Origin: an uncultured Gemmatimonadaceae bacterium
GTDB lineage: Bacteria; Gemmatimonadota; Gemmatimonadetes; Gemmatimonadales; Gemmatimonadaceae
DNA length: 64,000 nucleotides
Direction of reading: 5' to 3'
Assembly: GCA_963829055.1 (NCBI GenBank)
Contig: CAWHHI010000012.1
Span: forward strand, 384,001-448,000
Part shown: in pieces, positions 1,587-64,000 of the stretch
Layout: each line of letters begins with the position of its first letter
How positions within the stretch are numbered: position 1 is the stretch's first letter
Position numbers and translations under genes: made by a program
Notes under the pieces: generated by a model
What the model was told of the DNA's origin: nothing
Databases searched by the model: none
The model's input: the letters and a program-made list of their open reading frames with translations, nothing else

Positions 1587-2474
1587 CTACAGTGCCGTTT
1601 CACAGGCGATTCGTCTGTCTACGACGGTCGGACGCAACTCCAGCGCTACGCAGAGCGCATCGGCCATCTGGCCCGCCGTCATGTAGCGCTCGGCAGGATC
1701 CGCCACGAGCGATCGCCGGAGCACGGTCGCAAGCTCGTCCGGCACGTCGCGTCTGAGCGTCCGAATATCCGGCGGGGGCTCATCGATTCGCCGCTGCATC
1801 GACTCCCGCGGCGAGGAGGCCGCGAACGGCAACTGGCCCGTGAGCATCTCCAGCAGCACGCATCCCAGCGAATAGAGATCCGACCGGGAGTCGGCCACCC
1901 GCCGGCCGGCGACCTGTTCGGGGCTGATGTAGTTCGCCGTGCCGACAATGTATTTCTTCGGGTCGCGGGAGTCGGCGGCGGACGTCAGCGCCGGTGCGCG
2001 CGCATGCCCGAAATCGAGCAGGACAGCCGCGTTAGGCGTGAGCAGGATGTTGTCCGGCTTCACGTCGCGGTGCACGACGCCGTGCGAGTGCACGTGACCG
2101 AGTGCCAGTGCGATGTCGCGGGCGATACGCGCGGCATCGCTCGTGGAAAACGCGCCGTCGCGCGCGAGACGCTGGCGTATCGTCTCGCCTTCGAGGAACG
2201 GCATGGCGAAGAACAGCGTGCCCTGCGCCTCACCCGCATCGCGGATGGGCACGATGTTGGGGTGCGACATCTTCTGCAGGATCTGCATCTCGAGCAGGAA
2301 GAACTTCGACCGTTCCACCGCCGCCGCGCCGGTCTTCATGACTTTCACGACCACGCGCTCACCGTCGCGCTCACGCGTCGCGAGGTATACACGCGACGTC
2401 GCGCCAGTCCCGAGCTCGCCCGCGATGGACCAGCCGGTGCCCAGCCGCGATTCAATGGCGGCGATAAGATTCAT
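1587..2474 (-). CDS. Hanks-type Ser/Thr protein kinase (kinase domain only)
   Basis: GxG loop, VVVK, HRDVKPDN, DFG, GTANYISPEQ, SDLYSLG. Confidence 0.93.
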   Translation of the reverse strand: MNLIAAIESRLGTGWSIAGELGTGATSRVYLATRERDGERVVVKVMKTGAAAVERSKFFLLEMQILQKMSHPNIVPIRDAGEAQGTLFFAMPFLEGETIRQRLARDGAFSTSDAARIARDIALALGHVHSHGVVHRDVKPDNILLTPNAAVLLDFGHARAPALTSAADSRDPKKYIVGTANYISPEQVAGRRVADSRSDLYSLGCVLLEMLTGQLPFAASSPRESMQRRIDEPPPDIRTLRRDVPDELATVLRRSLVADPAERYMTAGQMADALCVALELRPTVVDRRIACETAL

Positions 2475-2528
2475 TGTCGTGTGAAGGGTCCCGTCGTCAC
2501 TCGGTCACCAGATAGACGACCGAACGGG

Positions 2529-5096
2529 TCAGACGGCTACGGCTTCCTCGGGCTCCGGGCTAACGACGTCCCATTCATTGCCACACTTGACGCACTTTCG
2601 GAACTCGCCCCGAGTCTTGTTCGACTTCATCTCGGCGCCGAGGTATCCGCATTCCGGGCACTTCTCGGGTACCGGCTTGTCCCAACACACGAAGTCGCAG
2701 TTCGGATAGTTGGAGCAGCCGTAGAACGCCTTGCCACGTTTCTTGGAGCGACGCTCGGCGATCTCGCCGCCGTCTTTCGGACAGATCACGCCCGTGGGCA
2801 TCGACCGTGTCCCACGACACTTCGGAAAGCGACTGCAACCGAGGAAAAAGCCGGACCGGCCGTCACGTTTGAGCATTGGCGCGCCGCACTCGTGACATAT
2901 GTACGACGTTGGCTCGGCTGGCTTGCGGTCACCCTTGAGGGGTCGGGTGAACTTACACGTCTTGGGGTGGTTCTCACAGGCGACGAACGGTCCGAAGAAC
3001 CCGCCTTTGGCCATGAGTCGGCCGCCGCAGTCCGGGCATTTCTCCGTCGCCAGCGCCGACAGGTCATGCGCCTCGGCGATGAGGCTCTCGACCTGCACAG
3101 AATTGAGGGACTTCTCGAACGGGCCATAGAACTCGCTGAGGACGCGCCGCCACGGCATGGCGCCTTCCTCGATCTTGTCGAGCTCGCCTTCCATCCCCGA
3201 GGTGAAGCCGACGTTGAAGATGTCGGGGAATTGCTTCACCATCACGCGTTCGACACTCTCGCCTAACGACGTCGGGAAGAACCGCCGCTGTTCGAGCTGC
3301 GTGTAGTGGCGATCTACCAGAGTGGAAATAATCTGGGCATAGGTAGAAGGGCGGCCGATCCCGAGTCGCTCGAGCTCTTTCACGAGGCTCGCTTCCGAGA
3401 AGCGTGGGGGCGGCTCGGTGAAGTGCTGTGAGGGCGTGATCTCACGCACCGGGACACAGCTGTCCCTTTTCCAGCACGGGCAGCGCCTGCTCGTCTTCCA
3501 GGGCGCGGTGGTCGCCTTCCTCGTGCGTCTCGCGATAGAGCGCGAGGAAGCCGGGGAACTTGATCACGCTTCCCGTCGAGCGGAATAGATACGTGTGGGA
3601 CGTCTGGATGCCGACGTCCGCCTGGGCGAGGTCGTAGTCGACCGTGGTCGTGTCGAACACCGCCGGCGCCATCTGCGACGCCATGAAGCGCTGCCAGATG
3701 AGCTGGTAGAGCTTGAACTGGTCGTCCTTGAGATAGCGCCTAACGAGATCCGGCCGGCGTGACGGGTCGGTCGGTCGAATCCCTTCGTGCGCGTCCTGCG
3801 CGTTCTGCGCGTTGTTCTTGCCGCCGCCATAGAGCATTGGCGACGCGGCGAGATAATCCGCGCCGAACAGGGTGCGCAGGTGGTCACGCGCCTGGAGCGC
3901 GGCACTCTCGGCCACACGCGTCGAGTCCGTGCGCATGTACGTGATGAGCCCGACCGCGCCCTCGGCGGGGCCGATGTCGATGCCCTCGTAGAGGTCCTGC
4001 GCGAGACGCATCGTGCGCTTCGACCCGAAGCTGAGCTTCTTCGCGGCTTCCTGCTGCAGCGTGCTGGTCGTGAATGGCGGCGACGAGTTCTTGCGACGCT
4101 CGCGGCGCTTTACCTCGGTGACCGGGAATGCCCCGATCACTTCCCCGTTCGGCGAACGCTGATCACGTCGAGCGACAGCCGCGGCTACGCGCTCGACTTC
4201 ACCGACCATGGCCTGCGCGTCGGGCCCGTTACCAATCTCCGGCTTCTTGCCGTCGACGTGATGGAGCTTCGCCGTGAAGCGCTGCGCGTTCGCCTCGAGC
4301 TGTGCCTCGATGGTCCAATACTCGACCGCCTTGAACGCGCGAATCTCTCGCTCGCGCTCGACGATCAGCCTGAGCGCGACCGTTTGCACGCGGCCCGCGG
4401 AGATGCCCTTCTTGACCGTCTTCCAGAGGATTGGGCTCGCCTTGTAGCCGACGAGTCGATCGAGCACGCGTCGCGCCTGCTGGGCTTCGACCTTCTTGTC
4501 GTCGATCTGGCCGGCATTCGCGATAGCGCGCTGCACGGCGTCCTTCGTGATCTCATGGAACATCACGCGCCGCACGGGGGCCCCGCCGCGCCGCTTGATC
4601 TGTTCCGACACGTGCCAGGCGATCGCTTCGCCTTCCCGGTCAGGGTCGGTCGCGAGGAAGACTTCCTTGGAATCGTGCGCGGCAGACTTGAGATCCGCGA
4701 GCGTTTTCTCCTTTCCCGAGATGGTGACGTACTCGGGCTCGAAGCCGTTCGCGATGTCGATACCGAGCTTCTTCTCAGGCAAGTCCCGCAGATGCCCGAC
4801 GGTCGCCTTCACGCGGTAGCCACGACCAAGGTACTTGCCGATGGTCTTGGCTTTCGCGGGCGATTCGACGATCACGAGCGACGTCGAACCGGCGGGTGCC
4901 GGTGTCGCATCGTCCTCGCCCGGAACGGTCGCGGCGACCTTGCGGCCGCGCGCTTTCGTCGCGGCCTTCTTCTTCGCCGCTGGACGGCGACGAGGCGTCT
5001 TGGCCGCCGGGCGCGCGGCGCTCCCGCGCCCCGCTACCCGACGGGTGCGACTGGTTCTTCGGTCGATTCGGACGACGGTTCCTTCTTTCGGGCCAT
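2529..5096 (-). CDS. topA: DNA topoisomerase I; frameshift near 3445 and probably near 5035
   Basis: IVESPAKAKTI, ATDPDREGE, SAGRVQ, GLITYMRTDS (ORF 3442-4875); GIGRPSTYA and C4 zinc ribbons (ORF 2529-3449); upstream ATG at 5096. Confidence 0.93.
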
Positions 5097-5100
5097 TCTG

Positions 5101-5535
5101 TCAGTGAACGGTAGCGTGATCGGACGACGGGCCGGACGGGTCGTACCCTGAACCCTCCATAAGCGCCCGCAGGTCGTCGAGCGCAATACGACCATCGATC
5201 TGCATGAGCGCCCGCTCGATCACGTGCTCGAGCTCGGCGGTGGTCAGCGCCCCGGAACCGGTGAGCGTCAGCAAGTGGCCCCAGGCATCAGGGGCGAACC
5301 GACCACGCTCGTGCGGGCCCATCACGCGAAAGGTCATGTGGTTGTGAACGACCGACTGAGCGCCGGTCGCGCGAATAGGAATCTCTGAGAACAGCAGCGA
5401 CAGAATCTCACCAATCTGGCGCCTATCGTACCCTTCGTACGACAAAAACGCTTCGACCTCCTCGACGTTCGCGTCTGCGGCGAACCGCTCGCGCAACACC
5501 GACAGGAGGTCTGCCAACCGATCATCCATGGCCAA
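5101..5535 (-). CDS. smg: DUF494/Smg family protein
   Basis: Size, RVMGPHERGRF...ELEHVIERAL pattern, and the typical position upstream of topA. Confidence 0.7.
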   Translation of the reverse strand: MAMDDRLADLLSVLRERFAADANVEEVEAFLSYEGYDRRQIGEILSLLFSEIPIRATGAQSVVHNHMTFRVMGPHERGRFAPDAWGHLLTLTGSGALTTAELEHVIERALMQIDGRIALDDLRALMEGSGYDPSGPSSDHATVH

Positions 5536-6107: not shown

Positions 6108-7255
6108 AGTTGCGCCTCGTTTCCGCGAGCGAATCGCCGCCGAACTTTTCGAGAGCCGCCTGCGCCAATACGAACGCCGTCATCGCTTCCGCAATGACGC
6201 CCATGGCTGGGACGGCGGTCACGTCGCTGCGCTCCGCCGTTGCCGACGCGCTCTCCCCTGTCGCTACGTCCACGGTCGCCAACGGGCGCATGAGCGTGCT
6301 GATAGGCTTCATGGCCACCCGCAACACCAGTGGCTCCCCCGTTGTCATGCCGCCTTCGAGCCCTCCGGCTCGATTCGTCCTGCGACGAACATTGCCTGCC
6401 AGCGTTCGGCCCGGCGCCGGCTCCATCTCGTCGTGCACGTCGGCTCCAGTGCGTCGTGCTGCCTCGAACCCAATGCCGACTTCTACTCCCTTGACGGCCG
6501 GAATGGACATGAGCGCGGCAGCGAGCCGGCCGTCCAGCTTTCGATCCCACGACACGTGAGACCCGAGCCCCACCGGTAACCCGCGACACACGACTTCACA
6601 GATGCCACCGAGCGTGTTGCCTTCCCGCTTGATCGCATCGATATGCGTAATCATCACCGCCTCAGCGGCACGGTCAAGCGTCCTGAGCGGCGACGCATCG
6701 GCCGCGCCGTTGATGTCATCCGGCAGCGGATCCGGCACGCTCGCGTCGATGCCGCCCAGGTGCACGAGGTGACTTCCGATCTGCACGTCGAGCTCGGACA
6801 AGCAGCCGCTTGCAGATCGCCCCCGCCGCGACGCGCGCGGTCGTCTCGCGTGCGGACGCACGCTCGAGGATGTCGCGTGCATCATCGCGGTCGTACTTGA
6901 GTAGACCCGTGAGGTCCGCGTGTCCCGGACGCACGCGCGTCACGGCGCGGCGGCGCGGATCAGGATCTCCATCGCGCGGCGCCGCATCCATCACGTCCTG
7001 CCAATTCTTCCAATCGCGATTCGCTATGGACATCGCGATCGGCGAACCGATCGTCTGGCCCGCCCTAACGCCTGAAAGAAACTGCACCACATCGGATTCG
7101 ATCTGCATCCGCCGGCCGCGCCCGTACCCCTGTTGGCGTCTCGAGAGCTCGACGTCGACATGCTCGGCCAGAAGCGGAAGCCCGGCCGGCATTCCTTCGA
7201 GTACGCTGACGAGCGCCGGCCCGTGTGATTCTCCAGCGGTGGTGAAGCGCAACAT
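6064..7255 (-). CDS. aroC: Chorismate synthase (frameshift ~6800)
   Basis: [26 protein letters not shown] in one frame; [21 protein letters not shown] in another. Confidence 0.95.
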
Positions 7256-9819: not shown

Positions 9820-11742
9820 TCAGCGGGCGCCGCCGGGGGGCCGAACAGCCTCCCCTTCGTCGATGATGTGCGGGGTGATCAGCACGAGCAGGTCGCGCTT
9901 CTCTTCGCGGCTGTCCGTCTGCGAGAACAGCTTGCCGATGAGCGGCAGCTGGCTGAGGATCGGAATGCCGGAGCGGTTGCGAACGACCTGGGTCTGCGTG
10001 AGACCGCCGATGACCGCGGTCTCGCCGTCGGCGACGAGGAGCTGGTTGTCGGCGCGGCTCTTGTCGAAGAAGAACCCGAGGTCACCACCGACGACGTTCA
10101 GCCGCGATTGCTCGGCGTGGACGGTCATGCGGATCTGGCGGTTGCTCGTGATGTGCGGGGTGACGCGGAGAATGATGCCGCTTTCCTTGAACTGCACGTT
10201 GGCGCGGGCGGTAACGCCGACCTGGCCGGCGCTTCCCGCGTCGATCACGCGGATCGGCGTTTCCTGACCGACGAGAATCTCCGCCATGCGATTGTCGAGC
10301 GTGACGATGCTCGGTTCGGCCTGGAGGTCAGCGAGGTTTTCCTCGTGCAGCGCGTCGAGGAACGACGTTAGGCTGTAATTGCCAATGGCTGTAGAGAACA
10401 GGAGACTGAGCGCGGATCCGACGCGGTACTTGCGGCTCGCGTTCGCGATGCCGGCGAGCGCCTCACCACCGAGCTGCACCTGGGACTCGAGGGTGGACGC
10501 CGGCTGGCCCGGGTACGAGTGCGGCGCGAGCGTGTTGAAGTAGGCAGCCGGGCTGGCGAGGTCGTAGCTGATACCGAGATTCTCGATCGACGTGCGGTTG
10601 ACCGAGATGATCTTGGCGCGCAGCGCCACCTGTGGCGTGCGGACATCGAGGTTCTTGATGTAGCTCATCAGGTCCGGCATCCGCGACGCAACCTCGGTGA
10701 CGAGGAGCGTGTTCGTCGATGTGTCGGCGACGACGCCGCCGCGGACGATGCACGTCGCAGCACCGACAACGTTCTGCTGGTTACCGCCACCCGCACCCGA
10801 CGCCGCGGTTGTGAGACCGGCCTTGGAGCAATCCTTCGAGAGAAGCGAGGCGATCGTCTGCACGAGCGACGACGCGCTCGCGTAATTGACCGCGACGAGC
10901 TGCGTAGTCAGCGGCTCGTTCGCTTCCTTGGCGAGAATGTTCGCGTAGCTATCCACCGAGATGATCCCGGTGTTCTCTTCCGACGCGGCGAGACCCTGCG
11001 CCTGCAGGATCGCCTGCAAGGCGACATCCCACGGCTGATCCTTGATCTCGGCGGTAACCGTGCCCTGAACGTCGCGGCCGATCACGATTGTGCGCTGCGA
11101 GAACGACGCGAACGCCGCGATCACGTCGCGGATGTCGGAGTTCTGATAGGTGACGGTGATACGCGGCTGCTGTGAGCGCTGCGGATTGAACGTCAGCTTC
11201 TCGCGCGCCGCGGCAGCCGCGGTCGTGCGCGCACCGTCGTTGCGCGTCTCGGCGGCCACGCTGCCCGCCGACGCGGCGGCGACCCGATCGCCGGCGTGCC
11301 AGGCGACGAACTTCTCGGCGCCGACGACGGCGATGCGAATCTCGTTGTCATGGCGCGTCACTTCATACTCACGGCTGGCGTCGAGCTCCAGCACGAGGCG
11401 GACGACGTCCGGCTTGTACTGGGCGAGCCTAACGTTGGTGATACCCGCGCGGGATATCTTGTCGTACATCTGCAGGGGCAGGCCCAGACGCGCGCCGGTC
11501 AGGTCGATCACGACGCGATCGGGACCCGTCAGCACGAAATCAGAGACGTCGACGGGACCACTAATGCCCACGACCACTTCAGCACGTCCCGAGGACGGCA
11601 CGATGCTCACGCCAGTGACGGCGTTGACGCCCTCACGAGCGCGGGCGGGTGCGGGGGCCGTGACGTGCGCGGCGCTCGCGCGGCCGGCGCTCCCGAGCAG
11701 GGCGGCGGCCGTCAGTGCGACCAGCGTACAGACTCGACTCAT
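9820..11742 (-). CDS. pilQ: Type IV pilus secretin with AMIN domain
   Basis: AMIN motifs PDRVVIDL and VRLVLEL; secretin motifs PSIVTLDN, ILRVTPHI, GIPILSQLPLIGKLF. Confidence 0.95.
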   Translation of the reverse strand: MSRVCTLVALTAAALLGSAGRASAAHVTAPAPARAREGVNAVTGVSIVPSSGRAEVVVGISGPVDVSDFVLTGPDRVVIDLTGARLGLPLQMYDKISRAGITNVRLAQYKPDVVRLVLELDASREYEVTRHDNEIRIAVVGAEKFVAWHAGDRVAAASAGSVAAETRNDGARTTAAAAAREKLTFNPQRSQQPRITVTYQNSDIRDVIAAFASFSQRTIVIGRDVQGTVTAEIKDQPWDVALQAILQAQGLAASEENTGIISVDSYANILAKEANEPLTTQLVAVNYASASSLVQTIASLLSKDCSKAGLTTAASGAGGGNQQNVVGAATCIVRGGVVADTSTNTLLVTEVASRMPDLMSYIKNLDVRTPQVALRAKIISVNRTSIENLGISYDLASPAAYFNTLAPHSYPGQPASTLESQVQLGGEALAGIANASRKYRVGSALSLLFSTAIGNYSLTSFLDALHEENLADLQAEPSIVTLDNRMAEILVGQETPIRVIDAGSAGQVGVTARANVQFKESGIILRVTPHITSNRQIRMTVHAEQSRLNVVGGDLGFFFDKSRADNQLLVADGETAVIGGLTQTQVVRNRSGIPILSQLPLIGKLFSQTDSREEKRDLLVLITPHIIDEGEAVRPPGGAR

Positions 11743-12408
11743 TTCGTCCTCGCTTGATTTGAATCATCCATCGCCAGCTCCTGCTGACGGCTGAAACCGA
11801 ATTCCTCGATCGTGAACGTCACCGCTTTCTGCGAGATGCGGGCGACGCGCATGCGGCCGATTTGTTGCCCAACTTTGATGCGGTATTGTTCGTGGCTCGT
11901 GACATCGCGAAGGATCGCCACCGAGTTACGACCGGCGGGATCGATCAGAATCCCGCTGATCGTCAGGTCGCTGATCATCGGGCGAAGCTCGCCGATGGTC
12001 ATGAGCGAGACGAAGGGGTCGCGACGACCGCTCTGCTCGTAGGCGTAGACTTCGCGACGCAGCACGACCCTGCCTGCGGTGTCCATCGGTGCGCTGGCGC
12101 GCGTTGCCGCGCCTGCCGCGCGTCGCCCGCACCCCGCGCGAGCGCGACGTGTCCGCGGGACTCTCGACCACGCGCTTGGCAGCGCTCGAGGAGGAGCCCC
12201 CGCGCACGTTCGCGCTCGCGGCAGACGCCGCGGCATTCGCGCTGTCGACGTTCGTCATCGCCAGCGTGTGCGTGTTGGTCTTCGCGACCGCCGAGTTGGT
12301 GGTCTGTTTGATCCGCGAAATGTTAGGCAGCGACTGCGCCTGGGTCGTCGCGACCGCGGTGGTCGAGACGATCGCGAGCGCACCGGCCAGAACGAGGCGA
12401 CGCATCAT
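11739..12408 (-). CDS. pilP: PilP-like pilus assembly protein (frameshift ~12130-12230)
   Basis: Signal peptide, YAYEQSGRRDPF, KVGQQIG; lies between pilO and pilQ. Confidence 0.7.
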
Positions 12409-13037
12409 GACTTACTCCCACCCGCCGGAGCGGGACGCGGGGCGGCGGTCTTCGCGACGTAGGTCTGCAGCTCAAACCGAGAGTCGAGGACCGAGTTGTT
12501 GTTCTTGAGGGCTTTCTTGCGCTGATCGGCCGCGGCACCACTGCCGAGCGGCGACAGCGCCAGGTTCACCGGCGCGACGATGCGCGTCAGCGAGCCGACG
12601 TTGGCGAGGAACTCGCCGAGCGCGTGGTAATCGCCAATGACGGCGACCTGATATCGATAGGTGTCGAACTGCTCTCCTTCGACCACCGGCTGCGGCTTCA
12701 CGGTGGCGAGGTCGAGGCCGACGCGACGCGCGGCCGTCGAGACCTGCTCGAGCAGCGCCGGCACTTCGTTGCTCGTCGGCACGAGCTGGCGCATCACTTC
12801 GAGATTCTCTTGCAGCTTCACCGCTTCGGCGCGCAGCTGGTCGACGTTGCCTTTCGCGAGCTCCGCCTTTGCCCGCTGGTTGTTCACATCGAGCGAATCA
12901 ACGTGCGCCTGCAGGCTGGCGAGGACGTCGGCCTTCGGCGAGAAGACGTATGCGTAGTACAGTCCGATCAGGGCGACGGCGACGATGACGAGAAGCACCA
13001 TCACCTGGTCGCGCTGATTCTTCGGGAGCAGGGCCAT
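12405..13037 (-). CDS. pilO: Type IVa pilus protein PilO
   Basis: TM, coiled coil, VPTSNEVPALL, GDYHALGEFLANV..L.RIV. Confidence 0.9.
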   Translation of the reverse strand: MALLPKNQRDQVMVLLVIVAVALIGLYYAYVFSPKADVLASLQAHVDSLDVNNQRAKAELAKGNVDQLRAEAVKLQENLEVMRQLVPTSNEVPALLEQVSTAARRVGLDLATVKPQPVVEGEQFDTYRYQVAVIGDYHALGEFLANVGSLTRIVAPVNLALSPLGSGAAADQRKKALKNNNSVLDSRFELQTYVAKTAAPRPAPAGGSKS

Positions 13038-13046
13038 GGTAGCCTC

Positions 13047-13772
13047 TTACTTGGACGACAGGGTAACGGGGACGGTCGCAATCGCCGACGCGTCAGGACG
13101 CTCGTACTCGGCCTCGAGGAGGAACTCCTGCACTTCCTTGCCTTCGAGGGTCACCAGTTCGGCCTTCGCGATCGTGACGTTCTTCACGAACGGCGAGGAC
13201 TCGAGCAGCTTCATGAAGCGCGTGAGCGCCTGGATATCGACCGTGTTGCCGGAGATCTGGAACTTCAGCGTCGCCGGAGCAGGCGGCGGAGGCGGAACGG
13301 GCTTGCCCTTGCCGTCCTTCGCCGGAGCCGGTGCAGGTGTGGGCGTCGCGGCCGCGACCATCGCGCTCTGCGCGATGGTCTTGAGCCACGTGTACGGCGG
13401 CAGCGAGCGGCTCACCTCGTCCATGATGTGCGCCCACACGAAGCGGTCGTTGTCGATGCTCTTGATGATCTCGAGCTGGCGACGAACCGAGTCCCGTTGC
13501 GACTCGGCGCGATTGCGCTCGCGGAGCACGGCGACGTAGCGGGTCGAGTCCTGCACCGAGCGACGCTCTCGCTCGGTGAGCTCCTCGGCGCGACCGGCCT
13601 GCGACAGATGCAGGGCGCCGATGGCGCCGACGGCGGCGATGATGCTCACCGCTGCCGCGATCATGAATGGGTCCTTGACGCGCGCCCCCGCCTTACCAGC
13701 GATGGCGGTGAGGCTGAAGCCGGTGGAGCGGTTTTTCTTACCGCTACCCGGCAGAAGATTGATCTCGATCAT
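13047..13772 (-). CDS. pilN: Type IVa pilus protein PilN
   Basis: MIEINLLP motif, TM, PPYTWL, FMKLLESSPF. Confidence 0.9.
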   Translation of the reverse strand: MIEINLLPGSGKKNRSTGFSLTAIAGKAGARVKDPFMIAAAVSIIAAVGAIGALHLSQAGRAEELTERERRSVQDSTRYVAVLRERNRAESQRDSVRRQLEIIKSIDNDRFVWAHIMDEVSRSLPPYTWLKTIAQSAMVAAATPTPAPAPAKDGKGKPVPPPPPAPATLKFQISGNTVDIQALTRFMKLLESSPFVKNVTIAKAELVTLEGKEVQEFLLEAEYERPDASAIATVPVTLSSK

Positions 13773-13795
13773 CGGAGTTCGGTCGCGGTGAAGGA

Positions 13796-14839: not shown

Positions 14840-15330
14840 AGCGAGGGTGCCGAGTCGAGGTGGATCGTGCGACGCCGACGAAGGCGCCGTGCTGTCGTTG
14901 CCATCGCCCTGCATGCGCCGCGGACTGACCGATCGTTCCGCTCCGCGCATCGCCGGACCAGCCTAACGTGACACAGTCGCCCGGGCGAGCTACACCACGG
15001 CAACCGATGACAAGAGGCATTTTGACCACAGGCCCGGTCGAATCTGCCAACAACACGATTGCGCGTTGCCGCTGGTAACAGCGTGTGACGCCACACGTTC
15101 GGACGTGCATCGTTGTGTGTTGAGAGTCACGCTAACAGCGTGGGAATAACCACGCGTGAAGGGTTTTCCCGGGAGAAGTACACCCATACCTCTCACGACG
15201 ACGCACGCGCCTCACGCGGTACCGTCGCGCGGCGATGTGACGCACGGCACCACGCACCGTCCGACTCGACACCCGGCATCACAGCGCCGTCGTTATGCAA
15301 GCACGTCGTGACGGCGCGCGACATGACGCG

Positions 15331-17414: not shown

Positions 17415-17743
17415 GGCACGAGCGCGCGATAGGCGTCTCGCCGAGCTCCCCGTCGGAGCGCCGAGCCGACGCTCAGGTCGACGCGTGCCGCGGCCGAGTC
17501 GCGCGCGACGGTCCACCGCAGCGTCGTGCGATCACGCGCGACCGAGCTGCTCGTTAGGCTCGCGCAGGGCGTCGCGGTGAGCGAATCGAGAATGGAGCGG
17601 GCGAGGTGGGCGGTGCTCGTGAGCTGCCCGCCCTCTCCGACCTGTGACGCGACCAGACCGGCCGTCGCGGCGAGCGCGAGCACGCCGACGGTCAGGACGA
17701 CGATGGCGACGAGGAGCTCGATGATGGTGAACGCTGGGCGCAT
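17405..17743 (-). CDS. PilV-like minor pilin
   Basis: MRPA|FTIIELLVAIVVLTVGVLALA. Confidence 0.75.
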   Translation of the reverse strand: MRPAFTIIELLVAIVVLTVGVLALAATAGLVASQVGEGGQLTSTAHLARSILDSLTATPCASLTSSSVARDRTTLRWTVARDSAAARVDLSVGSALRRGARRDAYRALVPCE

Positions 17744-17872
17744 GCCGACCAAGATGGGCGGCATGCCTCGGGTGTCGGCATCGTTCGCGCTCCGTTGTCA
17801 TCGTTTTCCTCCGCGTCGCGCCTCGTTATGCGCGAGCTGCCGCGGTCCCAGTAGGCGACCTACGGGATGCAA

Positions 17873-17903: not shown

Positions 17904-17934
17904 TCCTGCACCGCTGGGAAACCGCTCAGGCGCG

Positions 17935-18432: not shown

Positions 18433-18446
18433 AGTACAGCAAGAGC

Positions 18447-48849: not shown

Positions 48850-51800
48850 CGCGCGATCGTGCCCACCGGCCGCCGGATCTGCGCGATGGCCTGGTCGCGT
48901 CCAGCGCCTCGCGCACCTGCGTCGTGGCGAGCGTCTCGGACGGTGAAGTGGCTTCGCCGAGAACGCCTGCGGCCGAGGTCGCCGCCCGACGCCGGCCAGC
49001 TCGCCGTCGTCGTTGTAGCCCGGACATGAACAGGATCGGCAGCCCCGGACGAGCTGCCGCCGAGCGCGCGCGACAGCTCGCGGCCACCCATGCCCGGCAT
49101 GATCACGTCGCTCAGCACGAGGTCGATCGCGTCGCCGCGCTGGGCGCAGACCCGGAGCGCCTCGTTGCCGTCGCGGGCCTCGACGAATCGCGTAGCCCTG
49201 CGCCTCGAGCACGCGCCTGACGATCAGTCGGACCGCGTCCTCGTCCTCGACCACGAGCACCGTCTCCGTGCCCGCGCGGCAGCGCGTGTGCCGATCGGCG
49301 TGCTCGCCTTCGCGCGGGACCGTCGCCGACACCTGCGGCAGGATGATGTCGAACGTCGTCCCGCGGCCCGGCGCGCTTCGCACGTCGATGTGCCCGCCGC
49401 TCTGACGCACGATGCCGTACACCGTCGACAGGCCGAGGCCGGTGCCCTTCCCCTTGGCCTTGGTCGTGAAGAACGGCTCGAAGATGCGCTGCTGCGTCTG
49501 CGCATCCATGCCGACGCCGGTGTCGCGCACGGAGAACACGACGTGCCTGCCCGGGTTCACGCCGGCGTGGCGACGCGCGTACGCGGCGTCGAGCTGCACG
49601 ACGCGCGTCGAGATCGCGAGCACACCGCCGTTCGGCATCGCGTCGCGCGCGTTCACGACGAGGTTCATCACGACCTGCTCGATCTGGCCACGATCGGCGC
49701 GCACGGCGCCAATGCTGTTCTCGAACTGCGTCACGAGCGCGATGTCCTCGCTGATCACGCGGCGGAGCAGGCGCTCCATGTCGCCGATGACGTCGTTCAG
49801 ATCGAGCACCTGCGGCTGCAGCACCTGACGACGCGAGAACGCGAGCAGCTGTCGCGTCAGCGACGCCGCACGCGCCGCCGCCTGCGTGATCTGATGCGCG
49901 TCCGACCGCCGCGGATCCTGCTCGGGAAGCGCGTTGAGCAGGAACTGACCGTAGCTCGTGATGACCGTGAGCAGGTTGTTGAAGTCGTGCGCGACGCCGC
50001 CGGCGAGCTGGCCGACGGCGTCCATCTTCTGCGCCTGACGCAGCTGCTCCTCCATCATCTTCCGCTCGGTGACGTCGGCCATGACCCACACGGTCCCGAG
50101 CACGCCGCCAATGCCACGCAGCACTGCCGTCGAGACGTAGACATCCACGAGCGTGCCGTCCTTCCGCGCGCAGCGCGTCTCGTAGCCGGTGAACGAGTGC
50201 TCGCCCGTCGCCGAGAGTCGTCGCATGTCGTCCTCGAGCTGCTCGACCGGAAGGATCGGGATCGGGCGCCCGAGCACGTCGCCGGCGAACCATCCGAACA
50301 TGCGCTCGGCGGCGACGTTCCATTCGCTCACCGTGCCGTTGATGTCCGTCGTGACGATGGCGAGCGGCGACGCCTGGATGAGCGTCTGCAGCGTGTCGTT
50401 CGTCTCGCGCAGCTCACGCTCGGCGCGGTGGCGCTCCGTGACGTCGTGCGCCAGCGTTAGGCGTGCCGGCCGGTCGAGCACCGACAGCGCGTGCGTCACG
50501 ACCTCGACCGAGATGATGCGGCCGTCCTTCGTGCGATGCTGCCATACGCCACCGTCGAACTCCGGCGAATCCGGCGCGCGCGCCGCGGCGAGCAGCTTCG
50601 GGACTTCCTCAGCCGGGCGGATGTCGGTGATCCGCATGCCGAGGAATTCGGCGCGCGAGTAGCCATAGTGCTTCACGGCCGCATCGTTCACCGCGACGAA
50701 CGCGAGCGTCTCGATGTCGTAGACCCACATCGGCAACGGGTTCGCGTCGAACAGGAGCCGGTACCACTCCTCCGACGCGCGCAGCCGCTCTTCCGCGCGC
50801 TTCTGCTCGGTGATGTCGCGCGCGACGGCGTACACGTGGCCCTGCTCCTTGCCCGACGACTGGATCGTCCAGCCGAGCCACTTGTAGCTGCCGTCCTTGC
50901 AGCGGAGGCGGTTCTCGTATCGCTGCGAGGCGTCGCCTGACGCGAGCGAGCCGCAGCGCCATCGATGGCGACCGGCGCGGTCGTCCGGATGAATCGAGCT
51001 CGAGCACCGGCATCGCCAGCAGCTCGTCCGGCTCGTAGCCGAGCACCGCGCAGAACGCCGGGTTCACGCGAATGAACTGCCCGCGTGAACGACGCGATGC
51101 AGAACATGTCGGCGGAGAGCGAGAAGAACCGATCTCGTTCGCGCTCGGCGGCCCGACGCTCGGTGAGGTTGAGCATCGAGCCGATCATGCGGCGCGGCGC
51201 GCCGTTCGCGTCCCGAAGCACGTAGCCGCGGTCGAGCATCTCGGCGTACGTGCCGTCGCCGCAGCGGAAGCGATACTCGGCGGTCCAGATCTGCGTGTCG
51301 GAGTCGAGCGCGTCGGTGAGGCTGCGCGAGCGTCGCGTCGCGATCGTCCGGGTGGATGCGATCCGACCACCACTCGATGCTCGCGGCCGAGAGCTCGTCC
51401 GTCGGCGCGCGGAACGCGAGGCTCGCGCCTTCGCTCCACTGCGACGGCGCTCGTGCGAATGTCCCAATCCCAGATGACGTCGTTCGTCGCGCGCGCGGCG
51501 AGTCGGTGACGCTCTTCGCTCGCCGCGAGTGCAACGGTTCGCGTCTGCGAGCGTCGCCGCCATGTGGTTGAACGACGCCGCGAGCGTTCCGACCTCGCCG
51601 GGCGCGCGCACGTCGGTGCGCGCCCCGAGGTCGCCGGACCCGAACCGCGCGGCGTCGGCGGTCAGCTTGCGCAGCGGATCGGCAATCCGCGGCGCCACGA
51701 GCGCCGCGAGGAACAGCGCGCCGCCGAGGCCCAGCGCGCCGAACAGCGCGAGGAATCGCCACTCGGGCTCATTGGCGAGCGGAGAATCGTCGGCTCGACT

Positions 51801-52640
51801 CGGCCGACGACGACGAGCCACGGCGCCGCCGTGACGCGTTGGTACGCGTACTCGTCGCCGAGGCTGCGCATCGGCCGAATCGACGAACCCGGAGTCGGCC
51901 TCGTCGCATGCGTTGGACAGCCGTCCGGCGTCGACGAGTCGCGTGCCGACCGGAATCGGCGTGCCGCCGACTCGGGCGAGCACGGTCCCGTCATCGTCGA
52001 GGAGCGTGATGATGCTGCCGGATCGTCCGGCGTCGCCGACCGCGAGGAATCGCGCGAGGCTGTCGAGTCGCGCGGATACGGACGCGACGCCGGCGATGCG
52101 CCACCGTCATGTCGGATGCGCCGCGCCATCGTTAGGCTCCAGCCGCCGCTCTCGCGACTCTCGATCGGGCGACCGACCGTCAGGTGAGTCGCCGCGAGCG
52201 CCTCGCGGAAGAACCGGTGCGCGGCGACTTCCATCTTGCGCGCCCTCGCCGGGTCCGGTCGGACGAGCCAATGTTGTGGCCGTCGTTGCCCCAGAGCGCG
52301 AGGTTCGTGAACGTAGGACGGAAGCTCCGACCGCAGCCGGCGCAGCATCGCGTCGTTCCTTGCGATCGACGCCGGTGTCCGTGGACGCCGCCTGCGGCGA
52401 TCGCGACCAGCAGCCCCTCGATGGTCCCGAGCTGGTCGTCGACGCGCGCGCCGACCTGAGCGGCCAGGTCCCGTGAGCCTGGCGCGCGTGTCACGGTCGT
52501 GATCGCGCTCGATAACTCGCGTACGTGGTCGCGAAGAGCGCGATCCACGGCAGCAGCATCGCCAGCACCAGCAGCACCAGGCGCTCGCGGATCCCGAGCG
52601 CCGCCAGTCGCGCGCGCAATTGCGCCGCAATTCGTGTCAC
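48850..52640 (-). CDS. Hybrid histidine kinase (sensor-HAMP-multi-PAS-HisKA-HATPase-REC); multiple frameshifts
   Basis: HAMP GEVGTLAASFNHM, QAQKMDAVGQLAGGVAHDFNN, GTGLGL, LSDVIMPG; ends approximate. Confidence 0.85.
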
Positions 52641-55226: not shown

Positions 55227-55946
55227 CTAACGATGCGGTAGGGTCGCGGTGTCGAGCCGGTGCCCGCCGTCGAACGAGACAGCCGTGCGTGCGATTCCCG
55301 CCGCGCTGAATCGGCCGAGCTGCGACGTCGGCACCGGCCCACGACGCGAGCTCGTCACGCGTGCCGACGACGAAGCACCACCGGAGCAGCCCGCGAGCCG
55401 GTCCGCCAACGATGTGACAGATCGACGTCGGGCGGAAATGCGCCGGCCCACAGGATCACTTCGTCGGCGCGCACGCGCCGTCCACGCACGACCCAGCGGC
55501 CCACGGTCGCGACGCCCTGCGAGAAGCCGAACACGCGAAGCCTAACGCGGCTCGCGCTCGCGGGTGGCCGGACGTGGTCGTGCAGCGCGTCGAGGTACGC
55601 GATCTGATCGGCGATCTCCGCGCGTCGGTCCTCGCGCGTCATCCACGTCGCGCCCACTCCGGCGCTGCTGTATTCACGCCGACCCCGACGGCGCGTCGAG
55701 ATAGAATCGCGAGAGCGCCTCGGGCGCGATAATGCGTCGCGACGGGGTGGCGACACGGACGAACGACTCGAGGAACGGCGCCGCCAGCTGCCCGTACCCA
55801 TGGCACACGATCCACAGCTCGGTAATGTCGTCAGGCGCGTCCGGCGAAGGCCCGCCGAGGGCGTAGTACCGCGCCGTGCGCTGCACGGTGAGGTGATGCT
55901 CGCGCGGTGCGCGTGGCTCGCGGCGCTCGTTAGGCCCGACCGTCAC
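55227..55946 (-). CDS. Alpha/beta hydrolase (phospholipase/carboxylesterase), frameshifted
   Basis: TARYY, CHGYGQLA, APEALSRFY, GFSQG, FDGGH. Confidence 0.8.
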
Positions 55947-57147: not shown

Positions 57148-58923
57148 CTATCGTAGCTTCGCCACCCGTTCGGACGCCGGCGCGTTGCACGGCCGACTGG
57201 GCCGCCGACGATCGCTCGCTCGGTCTCGGCGGACGATCCGCCGACCTCGATCTCCGACATCGTGCCGAATCGCGCGGCGGTACCAGTCGGTCCACGGTCT
57301 CGAGGATCAGCCGTTCCTTGCCGCGATCGCCACCGCTGGCGATGCGCCGCGCGCGACAGCGCGGTCTCGACGTCGAGCCGGGCGATCGCGGCACGTTCGA
57401 CTTCGGCGACGAGCGCGCGCGCGGTCGCACCGTCGGCCGACGCCGAGCGTGAGCGCGGACACGAGCGCCGACACGCCGACGTTCGTCGAGCTCGCGCGGC
57501 GACACGTTAGGCAGCCGGTCGTTGTCCGTGTGATAGTAGACGTCGGTGAAGTGCCAGAACAGGAGTCCGGGCTTCTTCGCGTCGAGGAACGGCACGTGGT
57601 CGCTCCCGCCCTCGAACGGGTTCGTGCGCACGACCCAGCCCGTCACCGCCGCCTGGTCGAGGCAGCGACGCAGGACGAAGTCGTTGAAGAAGTGCGGCGT
57701 CAGCTGGTCCACGCGCAGCGGGCTGCCGCCCCATTCGGTGTGGTGGTCGTCGCCGCGCGTCCACACGGCGGACGGGTCGGGCATCTTCTCGATGAGGAAC
57801 GTGCCGCCGGTCTTCTCGGTGTCCTCGCCCACCATGTCGAGGCTCACGCCCCAGCTGCACCGTCGCCGCGCGCGCACGCGTCCGCGAGATAGCGACGCGT
57901 CTGCGCGATCTCGTTGCCCCAGATGAACGTGATCGAGCGACGCGGGTCGACCGTGCCGGCCTGGACGAGCGACGCGGCGACGCGCGCCATCTCCGACCTG
58001 CGCGCCGACGCCGGACGCGTTGTCGTTCGCGCCGGGCTCCTGCACGTGCGCGCTGAAGACGAATCGCTCGTTAGGCTTCGCCGCTCCCGCGAACGTCGGC
58101 GATGACCGTGCGCTCGACGGACGTGGAGAACCGCGACTGCGTCATCACGCGGACGCGCACCGGACCCGCGGCGAGCGCGCGCTGCAGCGCCTCGCGCGCG
58201 TCGTACGACAGCAGCAGTCCCCACGCCTTCGCGGCGGTGTCCGCCTGAGATCGACGAGAACTGGATCGACGTGCGATGCGTCTCGGGCTTCGTGTACGCG
58301 GGCATGGCGTACGCGAGCACGCCGATCGCGCCACGCTTGCGGGCCTCGCTCGACAGGCTTGCCGACCGACATGTCCCCGAACACGATCTTGCCGGCGAGC
58401 GGAACGCGATCGAACGCGCCGCCGTCGCCCTTGCCGACCGAGACGACTTCCGCTTCCACGCCACCAGCCGGCGTCGACGACGAGTTCACCGCGAGCATGT
58501 TGCGGTTCGTCGCGAAGCGCAGCACCGGCGTGCTCGCGCCGACGATCGTGAGCGACGCATCGAGCGGATCCCACGCCGGCCCCGACATTGCGCGCTGACT
58601 CGATGCGGAACGTCAGGCGGTCCGTCGGCTGTCGCGGCCTTCTCCTCGACGTAGCCCGCTGCGCGGAGCTGCTCGACCACGTGGTCGATGCTCTCCTCGA
58701 AGCCACGATTGCCCGGCCACCGCCACCGCTGCTCGACGAACGCCACCGTCGTGAGCGCGCGATCGCCCGAGTATTCCGGTCGGACGAGCGCGAACAGCTG
58801 CGCGACCGCTGGCGGCGGCTCGCGTCGATGACGGCTGCCCGCACTGGTCGCGCGGCGCCGAGCATCGCGGCGCGCGCGACGAGCGATCGCGAGGCGCCGA
58901 AACAACGAAGACGCCGCGGTCAC
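57148..58923 (-). CDS. M28 family peptidase with PA domain (frameshifted)
   Basis: PGANDNASG, WGNE, LDMVG, GGSDH, YYHTDND. Confidence 0.85.
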
Positions 58924-60797: not shown

Positions 60798-61083
60798 GTG
60801 TCGCGCAAGACGCCGGGCGACGGCAAGCTCGAGATCACGAAGATCGCCGCGACGCGGCTCGAATCGTTAGGTGAGCGAGTTCGTGGTCGCGGTCGACGAC
60901 ACGCGAAGGCGAGGCCGCGCTCGGCACGATGCCGTGTACCTGCCGAGGCGACGACGCGCCACACGTGCATTACTTCGTCGAGAGCGAGCTGCTGCCTGTC
61001 GATCGCTCGACGGCGGGAAGCGAAGTCGATCTCTTCGCTCGACGATGGCCGCGCCGGCAGCTGCTCGTCGTGACCACGCCTGA
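60798..61083 (+). CDS. Hypothetical protein (frameshifted)
   Basis: SRKTPGDGKLEIT; MPCTC..HVHYFVES. Confidence 0.45.
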
Positions 61084-61520: not shown

Positions 61521-62530
61521 GTGCTTCTCGCTGGCGACATCGGCGGCACGAAGACCCGGCTCGCGCCTCTACGAGGAAACGAGCGGCGGCGCTTCGTCTC
61601 GCGCAGTCGGCGCTGTACGAGAGTAAATCCACGTCCGACGCTCGAAGAGATCGTCGTCCGCTTTCTCGACACCAGCGGACAACCCCGACACCGACGGCCG
61701 CTTGCTTCGGTGTCGCCGGCGCGGTCGTCGGCGGGCAGGTGCGCGCCACCAACCTGCCGTGGCACGTAAGCGAGGCGGGCCTCGCGCGCGAGCTCTCGAT
61801 TCCGCACGTGCGACTACTCAACGATCTCGAGGCGGCGGCGTACGGCGTCGTCGCCATCACCGAGCCGAGCGTCGCTGCTGACGCTCCAGGCGGGGAAACC
61901 GCCGGACGGAGCATCGCGCGCTCGCGCTTGTGTCGGCGGGCACGGGACTCGGCGTTGCGATGATGTCGTGGAACGGGCATCGCTACAAGGTCGCGCCGTC
62001 CGAAGGCGGTCACGCCGACTTCGCGCCGCAGGACGATGTGGAAGACGCCATGTTGCGCATGGCTGCGGAAGAAGTTCGGACACGTGAGCTACGAGCGCGT
62101 CTCTCGGGCCCGGGTCTGGTGAACCTCTATCGCTTCCTGCGGAGCACTGGCGCAACAGCCCGAGCCGGCGTGGCTCACGGCCCGCATCGGCGACGGCGAT
62201 CCCGCGCCGGTGTATCGCGAGGCGGCGCTCGCCCACGAGGATGCCATCTGCGACGAGACCCTAACGCGGTTCGTGTCGCATCTACGGCGCCGCGGCCGGC
62301 AACTATCGCGCTCACGGCGCTCGCTGTGGGCGGCGTGTTCCTCGGCGGAGGGATCGCGCCGAAGATCCTTCCCGCCTCGAGAACGGACCGTTCCTGCGAG
62401 CGCTTCGCGGCGAAGGGCCGGTTTGCGATGCGATGCGGAAGATTCCGGTGCACGTCGTGCTGGCCCCGGACGTGGCTCTGCTCGGCGCAGCCGCCTGCGT
62501 CGCGAGAACGGCGTGACGCGAAGCGTGTAA
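61521..62530 (+). CDS. glk: Glucokinase (frameshifted)
   Basis: LAGDIGGTKT, TNLPW, LNDLEA, GTGLG, SEGGH, GGIAPKI. Confidence 0.9.
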
Positions 62531-62591: not shown

Positions 62592-62744
62592 GTCGACGGT
62601 CTGGTGCCGCTCGCGGTCGGCAACGGGCTCACGAATCTGTTCGGAGCGATCGCGTTGGCCACGGCTGGAGGAACGATCTTTGGCACGTTAGGCGCCATGC
62701 TCGTCATGCCAGCGATCCTCGTTGGGAGAAGAGCGGGCAAGTAG
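62592..62744 (+). pseudogene. Orphan fragment resembling the last TM helices of an RND (AcrB-family) transporter
   Basis: LVPLAVGNGLTNLFGAIALATAGGTIFGTLGAMLVMPAILV...stop; no upstream gene body. Confidence 0.5.
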
Positions 62745-62833
62745 CCGGGTCGACTGCGGCGCGTGAACCCGGGGGTGCTGGCATCCGGCGGTGGCATGGC
62801 CAGTACCAAGTGCGTCAGCGACTGCTCAGCAGC

Positions 62834-62943
62834 AGGTGTCAGGCATCAGGTCCCGTATCCGCCGGCTTGGGTCGCGCGCTTGGCGTCGCGCTTGGCGTTG
62901 CGCCGGACTGCCGACTGGGCTCGGAGACTGATGCCTGACACCT
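62834..62943. repeat. Element with perfect 16-bp inverted repeats
   Basis: aggtgtcaggcatcag ... ctgatgcctgacacct. Confidence 0.8.
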
Positions 62944-63005
62944 CGTACTCAATGCTGGCGTGCTGAGTCACTGGCCAGGACGTCGCGACAATGCCAGGAA
63001 CTCGA

Positions 63006-64000
63006 TCACGCCGCCGGCAGCGTCAGCGTGAACGTGCTTCCCTTCCCGATCGACGCTCTCGGCGACGAGATCGCCGCCCATCGCGCGCGAGAGATCGCGG
63101 CTGATCGCGAGGCCAAGTCCCACGCCTTCGCTCGGTGCGCCGGCCGAGCGCGCGACCTGAACGAACGGCTCGAAGATCGTCCGACAGCTTATCGGCCGGG
63201 ATGCCGCGGCCCGTGTCGCGCACACGGACCGTGACCTGGCCGCCGGTCCTCGTCGCACTCGAGCGTGATCTCCCCGTTAGGCTCCGTGAACTTGATCGCG
63301 TTCGTCATCAGGTTCACGAGGATCTGCTCCACCTTCTCACGGTCCGCGCGAACACGCAGGTCGCCATCGCAGTTGCGGCGTACGAAGCGGAGCTCGCGCG
63401 CGCGAAGCTGCGGTGTCGGTGACGTCCTCCACGCCGCGGATCGCTTCCGCCAGCTCGAACTCGCGGATCTCGTAGCGTACCGTGCCCGCATCGAGCCTAA
63501 CGAAGTTCAGCACGTCGTTGATGAGCGACAGCAGATGCTTCTGGCTGCGGCGAATGCGTCGAATGTCCTCGCGCTGCGCCGCGCGTGACCGGTCCGCGCA
63601 CCTCGAGCTCGATCAGCTCCGCGTAGCCGTCGATCGCGTTGAGCGGCGTGCGGAGCTCGTGACTCATCACCGCCAGGAACTCCGACTTCGCGCGACTCGC
63701 CTTCTCCGCTTCGGCACGCGCCGCCTCGGCCTCGAGGCGGGAGATCTCCGCCTCCTTCCGCGCGCGCTCGCGTGTTCGCCAACAACTTCGCGCGCTCCTC
63801 GCTCGGCGACGCGGCGTTCGGTGTGTCCGCGATGACCGCGACGACCGTCGGCGCGACCTGATCGCGCGGCGGCATCGGGTAGAGCGAACCGAGAACCAGC
63901 GATCGTCGATGACGCGACGTCGTACAGCAGCGGCTGTCCCGTGGCGACGACGTCGGCGATGCTGCCCGCCGGGGCGTCGCTGGATGGCGGGAGCAGGTCG
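63006..64000 (-). CDS. Sensor histidine kinase, partial and frameshifted
   Basis: [33 protein letters not shown]. Confidence 0.85.

Follow-up and report, generated by a model that had tools for sequence, protein, structure and literature searches.

A dispersed octamer of Gemmatimonadaceae genomes as a candidate uptake-sequence-like self-word

Dispersed words and the octamer of the window

DNA uptake sequences (DUS) and uptake signal sequences (USS) are short asymmetric words which occur about once per 1-1.5 kb, tens of times above expectation and equally on both strands. They lie inside genes in several phases, where they cost codon and amino-acid choice, and they are common to close relatives and missing from recently acquired DNA; for the Haemophilus USS an over-even spacing was described, and inverted pairs that form terminators are typical of the Neisseria DUS. 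To our knowledge, words of this kind are established only in Neisseriaceae and Pasteurellaceae, with all Neisseriaceae carrying DUS dialects, and the origin of their specificity is a long-standing question. Further dispersed words are HIP1 (highly iterated palindrome 1) of cyanobacteria, an abundant palindromic octamer inside genes which is linked to methyltransferases and whose mechanism is unsettled, and Chi, which in E. coli is only few-fold enriched. The present work deals with the heptamer CGTTAGG and its octameric form CGTTAGGC (the word), which are dispersed over a stretch of 64,000 nucleotides (the window, G000:C12:384001-448000) from the genome of an uncultured Gemmatimonadaceae bacterium (G000; 7,784,024 bases, i.e., 7.78 Mb, on 20 contigs, 85.9% complete, with 3.95% contamination and split genes present). 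In its density, excess, strand symmetry, use of phases, spacing, occurrence in relatives, absence from acquired DNA and company of ComEC, DprA and a type IV pilus the word resembles USS and DUS, and at a probability of roughly 0.4 it is read here as a genome-wide self-word which would build up by an uptake-sequence-like molecular drive. USS and DUS are thereby named as the best-matching pattern and not as a class to which the word is claimed to belong, and the uptake bias predicted from this match is put forward tentatively. The general view of an initial annotation of the window, i.e., a DNA-level, non-palindromic, dispersed and non-polarised signature of the DUS/USS type and not of the type of Chi or the FtsK-orienting polar sequences (KOPS), is retained.

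In the window, the initial annotation had listed 45 exact copies of CGTTAGG (27 on the forward and 18 on the reverse strand), and the count as well as all coordinates were reproduced. Its expectation of about seven copies was an overestimate, as dinucleotide-preserving shuffles give about 2.8 (mean 2.81, standard deviation 1.46, maximum 6 in 100 shuffles, none of which reached 45), and the GC content of 68% assumed for it was slightly high, contig C12 having 66.4% (64.6-71.0% in 4-kb windows across the window, 66-67% for the assembly). Genome-wide k-mer counting found heptamer and octamer enriched on all 20 contigs of G000, with 6,391 copies of the heptamer (3,237 forward, 3,154 reverse; 0.64-1.09 per kb across the contigs). 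Alignment of the copies shows the octamer CGTTAGGC to be the actual unit: CGTTAGG is followed by C in 78% of them, by T in 13%, by G in 7% and by A in 2%, and the earlier remark that most copies extend to the octamer holds true for 36 of the 45 in the window. The base preceding the word is G in 41%, T in 28%, A in 18% and C in 13%. The tolerated form is roughly YGTTAGGB (435 copies with T at the first base, 827 and 428 with T and G, respectively, at the last), and CGTTATGC was found to be mildly enriched as well (583 copies in G000).

The octamer itself counts 5,004 copies in G000 (2,547 forward, 2,457 reverse; 0.64 per kb), where 131, 102 and 258 are expected from Markov models of order 1, 2 and 3, which corresponds to a 38-49-fold excess over orders 1-2. 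Under orders 1-3 it is the octamer with the top z-score, and by raw count it ranks 31st among 65,147 octamers, although its centre is rich in A+T and the genome rich in GC. The enrichment likewise persisted against a codon-shuffled null, as shuffling of synonymous codons within each called gene gave 140-171 copies in ten trials as compared to 3,222 in coding sequence, an excess of about 20-fold. Higher-order Markov models, which the initial annotation had named as a possible refutation, gave a divided result: the excess was kept at orders 1-3, but amounted to 1.7-fold only at order 4, and maximal-order models did not flag the word. This loss arises because such models learn the word from its own sub-words (7,103 of the 8,933 TTAG tetramers in G000 fall inside GTTAGG), and order-4 and maximal-order nulls were rejected as a test of the word, orders 1-3 and the synonymous shuffles being used instead. 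Outside the word TTAG is about five-fold depleted, so that, compared with similar words, the real excess is even greater. That the enrichment is unreal, whether caused by codons or peptides, left over from a decayed mobile repeat or introduced during basecalling or polishing, could be argued from the order-4 value and from the split topA and AddAB genes of the assembly. It is contradicted by the shuffles, by the use of all phases and of intergenic DNA, by unconserved flanks and by the occurrence of the word in a second phylum and in all seven, differently assembled genomes of the genus, and its probability is considered close to nil. Together with the methylation or very-short-patch and the Chi explanations discussed below, it is largely excluded by the tests.

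Carriers, placement and turnover of the copies

The relatives compared are mostly metagenome-assembled genomes, where "not found" does not equal absence, and kin are not independent of each other. Comparison across related genomes, as proposed earlier, revealed the word to be rich in seven of seven genomes of the genus of G000 (2,501-5,112 copies each, in assemblies of 20 to 1,170 contigs), and since all of these differently assembled genomes carry it the word is no assembly artefact. Within the same family G014 holds 6,360 copies in 5.1 Mb and G010 holds 605, and most other relatives have 6-50 copies as compared to 100-400 of the reversed control word, i.e., the word is depleted in them. In a phylum sample of 301 genomes richness was found only in scattered genera of family f1 (Gemmatimonadaceae) and in genus g70 of family f2 (337-1,061 copies in four genomes). 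Rich f1 genomes are G300 (4,469), G236 and G293 (about 3,900-4,100) and several at 450-1,100; G289, a member of the same genus as G236 and G293, has 66 copies only, and the lineage gradient of copy number extends from about 170 to 6,360. The phylum tallies include four unpublished genomes (G013, G079, G118 and G199), all of them word-poor, on which no specific claim depends. Three words in + - + order were also sought across taxa, each species being represented by a single genome. Of the 37 stretches obtained, 22 bear titles of Chthoniobacterales, Verrucomicrobiae or Verrucomicrobiota and 13 of Gemmatimonadaceae or Gemmatimonadota, and one each is titled Bacteroidia and Terriglobales; two phyla are therefore marked by the same word. 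Among the 22 verrucomicrobial matches nine have the same length of 517 nt (L179, L186, L189, L192, L197, L198, L201, L204 and L210), which suggests one conserved gene with three fixed copies in many Chthoniobacterales species.

Gene calls were home-made and crude (6,496 genes covering 74.7% of G000), therefore part of the class counted as intergenic probably consists of uncalled genes. These calls place 1,714 copies of the octamer sense and 1,487 antisense in genes; a further 1,446 fall between genes and 357 on their edges, and all four stop-free phases are used (NCG-TTA-GGC 1,256, GTT-AGG 458, CCT-AAC 894 and CTA-ACG 593). Within the word context 1,260 of the 2,886 TTA codons are found, as compared to 1.3% of the CTC codons, and the word encodes 1,260 of 5,742 [SPTA]LG, 598 of 3,005 [SGRC]LT, 900 of 1,981 xPN[GAVDE] and 464 of 4,859 xVR[LPHQR] tripeptides. 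As every open phase and intergenic DNA are used, the signal resides in DNA and not in protein.

With respect to strand, 51.5% of the copies in G000 are located on the G-rich strand, and on the arms of contig C16, which has a clear skew switch, 366 vs 297 copies (55%) were counted, about as gene orientation alone predicts; intergenic copies have no orientation relative to their flanking genes. The word thus shares with Chi, KOPS and architecture-imparting sequences (AIMS) the property of being an asymmetric octamer over-represented in native DNA, but differs from them in that it lacks replichore polarity. For a Chi-like hotspot read by AddAB or RecBCD, to which besides this likeness an AddAB-like locus on contig C15 of G000 (split into several open reading frames, ORFs) would lend itself, the distribution of the enzymes is a second obstacle next to the absent polarity. 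RecC was not found in G000, the AddB fragment of G000 is without a homologue in G001, G014, G236 and G300, and an AddAB-size PF12705 protein was not found in thirteen rich genomes (G001, G002, G005, G014, G236, G293, G189, G288, G115, G125, G010, G207 and G168). The rich G300 and G160 possess PF12705 ORFs of only about 430 amino acids, and among these 15 rich genomes RecC was found in one (G160). A reading of the word as Chi is hence regarded as most improbable. A search for a polarised Chi or KOPS candidate on C16 gave no clear candidate, as gene-strand bias dominates, and a negative link between AddAB and the word, suggested by the first 17 genomes, was broken by 74 more, the rich G003, G004 and G006 having AddAB. 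AddAB is patchy in Gemmatimonadaceae, even within one genus; most word-rich genomes show neither AddAB nor RecC, and many complete genomes in which neither was found (G300, G189 and G115) raise the question of their double-strand end processing.

A flank logo, also proposed by the initial annotation, located the information to the word and one base on each side; beyond these the flanks hold at most 0.07 bits and only codon periodicity remains. As its flanks are unconserved the word is not a mobile repeat, and it differs from miniature inverted-repeat transposable elements (MITE) and repetitive extragenic palindromic (REP) elements in having no conserved sequence or structure beyond its core. 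The copies repel each other: gaps below 200 bp number 213 vs 610 expected at random placement, with avoidance up to about 200-400 bp, and gaps of 400-1,600 bp number 2,593 vs 2,085 expected, i.e., the spacing is over-even.

The evolution of the copies was followed by codon alignment of six window genes with three genus members (about 80% nucleotide identity), the rich G014 and the poor G007. In these conserved genes copies arise via point substitution and without indels. Where G000 has a copy the relatives hold ordinary codons (e.g., CGCTCGGC, CGCTGGGC and CGCTTGGA), with G007 having ordinary Leu codons, and the change consists of a synonymous Leu exchange to the rarest codon or sometimes of an amino-acid exchange (SQGD to SLGD). 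Of the six window sites which could be aligned, G001 and G005 retain four, and G014 two of these four. For comparison over a larger distance, 98 orthologue pairs of G000 and the rich G300 from another genus were used (104.5 kb, 64% amino-acid and 54% third-position identity). The word density is about 0.6 per kb in the orthologues of both genomes, and the sites common to both (8 of 60 and 8 of 62, i.e., 13%) are not above those of control octamers (18 of 123); among the non-shared sites, 35 of 52 in G000 and 47 of 54 in G300 coincide with differing amino acids. Positions hence turn over at constant density, which argues for an ongoing process that values copy number and not particular sites.

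Three stretches of 31-50 kb at contig ends of G000 are free of copies (C6:5440-55037, C11:1-46789 and C6:591808-623330). They contain ordinary metabolic genes, a transposase and a D5_N primase-like gene at the C6 start, and a second, divergent FolD (59% identity) and TrpG (55%), which point to acquired DNA or chimeric joins. The word could hence act as a purity check or marker that separates native from foreign or mis-assembled DNA in word-rich genomes. Terminase, portal and major-head genes occur on a provirus fragment (L062) whose 15 kb contain 19 copies, and the full record of this provirus (G318, 25.5 kb) has 26, on both strands, vs two control words. The complete phage G317 is barely enriched (18 copies, 17 forward and one reverse, vs 12 control words). 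The scan of IMG/VR used same-strand word pairs as its pattern, an ascertainment which favours integron attC arrays and which therefore says little about phages. From these data a packaging drive may be considered, in which a transducing phage or a particle resembling a gene transfer agent would start or favour packaging at the word and so spread host DNA to kin. It would leave the same signature as an uptake drive (symmetry, density, turnover and word-free foreign DNA), and the provirus with terminase, portal and major head genes is full of the word; as no terminase or particle was linked to the word, the complete phage is barely enriched and known pac sites are single and longer, such a drive is held to be very unlikely.

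Another explanation assumes that the word is read inside the cell by a DNA-binding system, as a self-marker sparing or guiding a nuclease, helicase, repair or chromosome-organising machine, whereby weak organism-level selection would keep the density near one site per 1-1.5 kb. Any model of one site per stretch is in line with an even spacing and with a density that stays constant while positions are free, the provirus with its 19 copies in 15 kb fits selection on DNA in the cell, and no uptake receptor was found (ComP_DUS and a C11 pilin were tested, see below). However, no candidate reader was found, as AddAB, RecC, five methyltransferase and repair families and IntI do not track the word, and an at least 40-fold excess bought with the rarest codons and with exchanges of amino acids needs a stronger per-site advantage than usual. 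This explanation is regarded as possible, though rather unlikely.

Relation to integron attC sites

Two published accounts give the attC core consensus as GTTRRRY and the inverse core as RYYYAAC, with crossover between core bases one and two (PMC3053210, PMC12901181). By comparison of the letters, CGTTAGGC is identical, its 5' C included, to the R' core end (3' end) which integron attC sites have in the same order, a correspondence overlooked by the initial annotation. The few copies of word-poor relatives are grouped at contig ends on a single strand, at distances of 500-650 bp. That these polarised clusters are phage or plasmid DNA was considered and rejected; they are integron cassette arrays, in which the copies end attC sites of about 100 nt with matching R''/L'' and L'/R' boxes (27 in L001 and L002, 8 in L003). 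The octamer likewise forms the attC ends in nine of eleven inspected IMG/VR contigs (30 to 67% GC; a set selected by the search pattern). IMG/VR contigs which are listed as viral and have long cassette arrays with octamer-ended attC sites at 48-67% GC are L034, L041, L046, L047, L067, L069, L093 and L110.

G000 itself possesses an IntI gene (C20:208041-208958(-), 265.7 bits vs a cut-off of 265), on whose 3' side two clear attC-like sites (205101 and 207188) and three copies with attC-like ends are located, and a truncated IntI N-terminus at C4:2862-3170. Within this integron (C20:197000-209000) the attC-like sites are oriented as intI, a layout which we take to be of the "inverted integrase" type, and the cassette DNA is nearly free of extra word copies. 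IntI exceeds the cut-off in 18 of 31 relatives and, in a further set of 24 genomes, in 20, irrespective of word-richness. It is present in the rich G300, G189 and G115 and in four of five Chthoniobacterales (one with four copies), and is equally common in word-poor genomes (G007, G008, G009, G016, G089, G124, G274, G289 and others); above the cut-off it was not found in the rich G002, G004, G010 and G125, and the G014 copy is split over three frames. Both word-bearing lineages, rich Gemmatimonadaceae and Chthoniobacterales, are therefore integron-rich. IntI and its truncated C4 form do not track word-richness and were rejected as readers of the word.

What the word has in common with attC is the GTTRRRY-type core (GTTAGGC) at the 3' end, whereas the 5,004 genomic copies have neither R'', L'' and L' boxes nor conserved flanks or a single orientation, the base at -1 differs from the attC flank, and the copies come from substitution. 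The genomic copies are not attC sites. Nevertheless the word might be a product or tool of the integron, either by abortive IntI exchange converting near-cognate sites or with the copies as attG-like docking sites. The octamer ends of attC sites in the arrays of word-poor relatives and of most inspected IMG/VR contigs would be in line with this, as would the integron-richness of both word-bearing lineages. It does not agree with IntI being as common in word-poor genomes and not found above the cut-off in four rich ones, nor with substitution as the origin of copies that have no attC structure; most copies moreover lie inside genes, where cassette insertion would be harmful, and sites prone to cleavage should disappear rather than accumulate. 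An origin of this kind is considered doubtful. Doubtful, too, is a self-word copied from the integron, for which an import or self-recognition reader would have been tuned to the attC core, and a runaway drive would have written the cassette tag into chromosomes. If true, cassette-bearing DNA would be favoured for capture and transformation would be coupled to cassette recruitment, with a shared gene-exchange community of some Gemmatimonadaceae and Chthoniobacterales spanning two phyla. As the word matches the R' core end of attC sites of the same order, it may be speculated that the preference of the reader arose on cassette DNA, and the identity with a cassette recombination core thus provides a concrete, testable idea for the origin of such specificity.

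Candidate readers of the word

ComEC, DprA, PilQ, PilO and PilM are present in G000 (the DprA result applies to G000 only), and the respective gene was found in all 24 genomes tested for ComEC and in all 30 tested for PilM, comprising rich, poor and Chthoniobacterales genomes. The suggestion of the initial annotation that the pilus machinery of the window may take up self-DNA agrees with the presence of import genes, a necessary condition, but is weakened in that type IV pilus genes do not discriminate, being found equally in word-poor genomes. Its further suggestion of a methylation system was not supported. Vsr, PF00145, PF01555 and PF02384 were not found in G000 (85.9% complete), and the one D12-class methyltransferase of G000, tried as a reader, was rejected, as its family occurs in rich and poor genomes and is missing from the rich G014, G300 (100% complete), G115 and G010 and from four of five Chthoniobacterales. 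A methyltransferase and mismatch-repair pair which protects or creates the word in a HIP1-like or very-short-patch-like manner can point to HIP1 as a comparably abundant, methyltransferase-linked octamer, which like the word lies inside genes at comparable density, and to the D12-class enzyme. The word differs from HIP1 in being asymmetric and in having no matching methyltransferase or Vsr found in G000; known very-short-patch effects are moreover under two-fold, and such a pair is judged highly improbable.

For the self-word reading, the mechanism would be as follows. A DNA-import component would bind word-bearing double-stranded DNA in preference to other DNA, and word-bearing fragments of kin would more often be imported via type IV pilus, ComEC and DprA and be recombined. 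New copies from point mutation would spread despite rare codons or amino-acid changes, and the build-up would stop at about one copy per 1-1.5 kb, where extra nearby copies would bring no gain. What is thereby added to the observed abundance, DNA-level origin, symmetry, spacing, turnover, restriction to lineages, absence from foreign DNA and presence of import genes is uptake as the step in which the word would be read, and the presumed identity of the reader.

Several findings weigh against this mechanism. The import genes, being equally present in word-poor relatives, do not explain who has the word. The earlier statement that no receptor is identified still applies: ComP_DUS (PF16732) reaches at best 14.8 bits in G000 vs a cut-off of 27.3, on the two PilA-like genes of the window. 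G000 holds few pilin-like genes, of which the stand-alone pilin on C11 was rejected as reader, its orthologues (64-79%) being confined to the genus and generic pilins of about 40% occurring in rich and poor genomes. Other than for DUS and USS, no ComP-family receptor was thus found, and the word equals the attC core. Inverted pairs, typical for Neisseria, are rare here (13 of 38 pairs within 60 bp), and unlike Neisseriaceae with their dialects three word-poor relatives (G008, G017 and G029) gave no hyper-abundant word of their own in samples of 100 kb. The same word in two phyla would need a shared or a convergent reader, the integron-core identity is not predicted by an uptake-drive model, and a word-filled provirus fits an uptake drive only if it is long resident. 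The lack of dialects, the cross-phylum occurrence and the integron identity are thus outside of what DUS and USS would lead one to expect. In G029, a word-poor member of another family, the top word belongs to a tandem (GGTRAGA)n array, and inverted pairs of such heptamer arrays occur at three loci of G029:C1:200001-300000 (L169-L173).

No published account of the word was found: the octamer matches listed were primers or unrelated, no paper was found which joins Gemmatimonad and DNA uptake sequence, and in the main text of PMC4670013, a match to the heptamer, none of the terms looked for occurs. A word which statistically resembles uptake sequences is herewith described from two phyla, in lineages that are abundant in soil and mostly uncultured; its reader, if found, would represent a new DNA-recognition system and a handle on gene flow in soil communities.

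Copies and neighbouring genes of the window

Coordinates of the window copies refer to the heptamer, which is extended to the octamer unless stated otherwise. The first copy, 2030..2036 (+), lies antisense in a kinase gene (1587-2474(-)) as CCT-AAC (Pro-Asn), followed by two sense copies in topA fragments, 3262..3268 (-) as TCG-TTA-GGC (Ser-Leu-Gly) and 3739..3745 (-) as GTT-AGG (Val-Arg), and by 7064..7070 (-), a heptamer only (next base G) outside gene calls. topA (2529-4875) is split at about 3442-3449 into two overlapping ORFs and the chorismate synthase ORF (6064-6885) is without its N-terminal third; these frameshifts may be assembly indels or real pseudogenes. The type IVa pilus cluster (9820..18983, -) is given as context only and comprises pilQ, pilO, pilM, PilX-like, PilW-like and two near-identical PilA-like pilin genes, the latter in tandem (17935-18339 and 18447-18983) and followed by the PilW-like and PilX-like genes upstream of pilMNOPQ. 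Its copies are 10366..10372 (+), antisense in pilQ as CTA-ACG (Leu-Thr), 11428..11434 (-), sense in pilQ as GTT-AGG (Val-Arg), 14360..14366 (+), antisense in pilM as CTA-ACG, 14962..14968 (-), between genes by our own calls, 15835..15841 (+), antisense in the PilX-like gene (15331-16497(-)), 17552..17558 (+), between genes, and 18414..18420 (+), between the two tandem pilin genes.

Beyond the cluster, 20663..20669 (-) is a heptamer only (next base T) in sense as GTT-AGG, 22783..22789 (-) reads CCT-AAC in a weak ORF call and 23842..23848 (+) lies antisense in the ORF 23225-25015(-) as CCT-AAC. The copy 24779..24785 (-), sense in pilR as ACG-TTA-GGC, is kept in G005, G001 and G003, has the one-off form CGTTAGGT in G014 and reads CGCTTGGA in the word-poor G007; a second pilR copy, 26073..26079 (+), is antisense and a heptamer only (next base T). 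A CNNM transporter gene holds 29053..29059 (+) in sense as ACG-TTA-GGC, which is kept in G005, G001 and G014, and 29451..29457 (+) and 30128..30134 (-) lie between genes. The heptamer 30893..30899 (+; next base T) is antisense as CTA-ACG. Two copies lie in a met-zincin gene, 31443..31449 (+), antisense and found in G000 alone among the genomes aligned, and 32178..32184 (-), sense as GTT-AGG, kept in G005 and G001 and replaced by CGTTCGGC in G014. Antisense are also the heptamer 32672..32678 (+; next base G) and the octamer 33488..33494 (+), the latter in a gene part not alignable to relatives, whereas the heptamer 35564..35570 (-; next base G) is sense as TCG-TTA-GGG. In a gene for a pyridoxal-phosphate-dependent enzyme 36382..36388 (+) is sense as CCG-TTA-GGC, kept in G005, G001 and G014 with CGGTAGGC in G003, and in cheB 37248..37254 (-) is sense as GCG-TTA-GGC.

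Thereafter 39912..39918 (-) lies between genes, 41751..41757 (+) is antisense in cheR, where G001 has GCCTGACG, and 42705..42711 (+) is an antisense heptamer only (next base G). The copy 44672..44678 (-) is sense as TCG-TTA-GGC, 45442..45448 (+) antisense as CTA-ACG, 45885..45891 (-) outside gene calls and 46568..46574 (+) at the edge of a weak ORF call. A gene for a kinase/sigma-factor protein of 1,080 amino acids has 50455..50461 (+) antisense, 52130..52136 (+) reads GTT-AGG in a weak ORF call, and 55541..55547 (-) is outside gene calls. Antisense copies are 55928..55934 (+), as CCT-AAC, and 57505..57511 (+), in the ORF 56795-58045(-); 58069..58075 (+) marks the junction of two ORFs. Two further heptamers are 60865..60871 (+; next base T) and 62260..62266 (-; next base G), and the octamers 62686..62692 (+), 63275..63281 (+) and 63496..63502 (-) lie outside gene calls.

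Another repeat of the window is an intergenic palindromic element of about 140 bp (37058-37200) with the terminal inverted repeats GTCATTCCGAGCG...CGCTCGGAATGAC. With BLASTN it is matched 311 times in G000, and short matches by the dozen occur in G001 and G003. The element forms a MITE- or REP-like family, which accounts for the remaining over-represented k-mers (TCGGAATGA and TGTCATTC).

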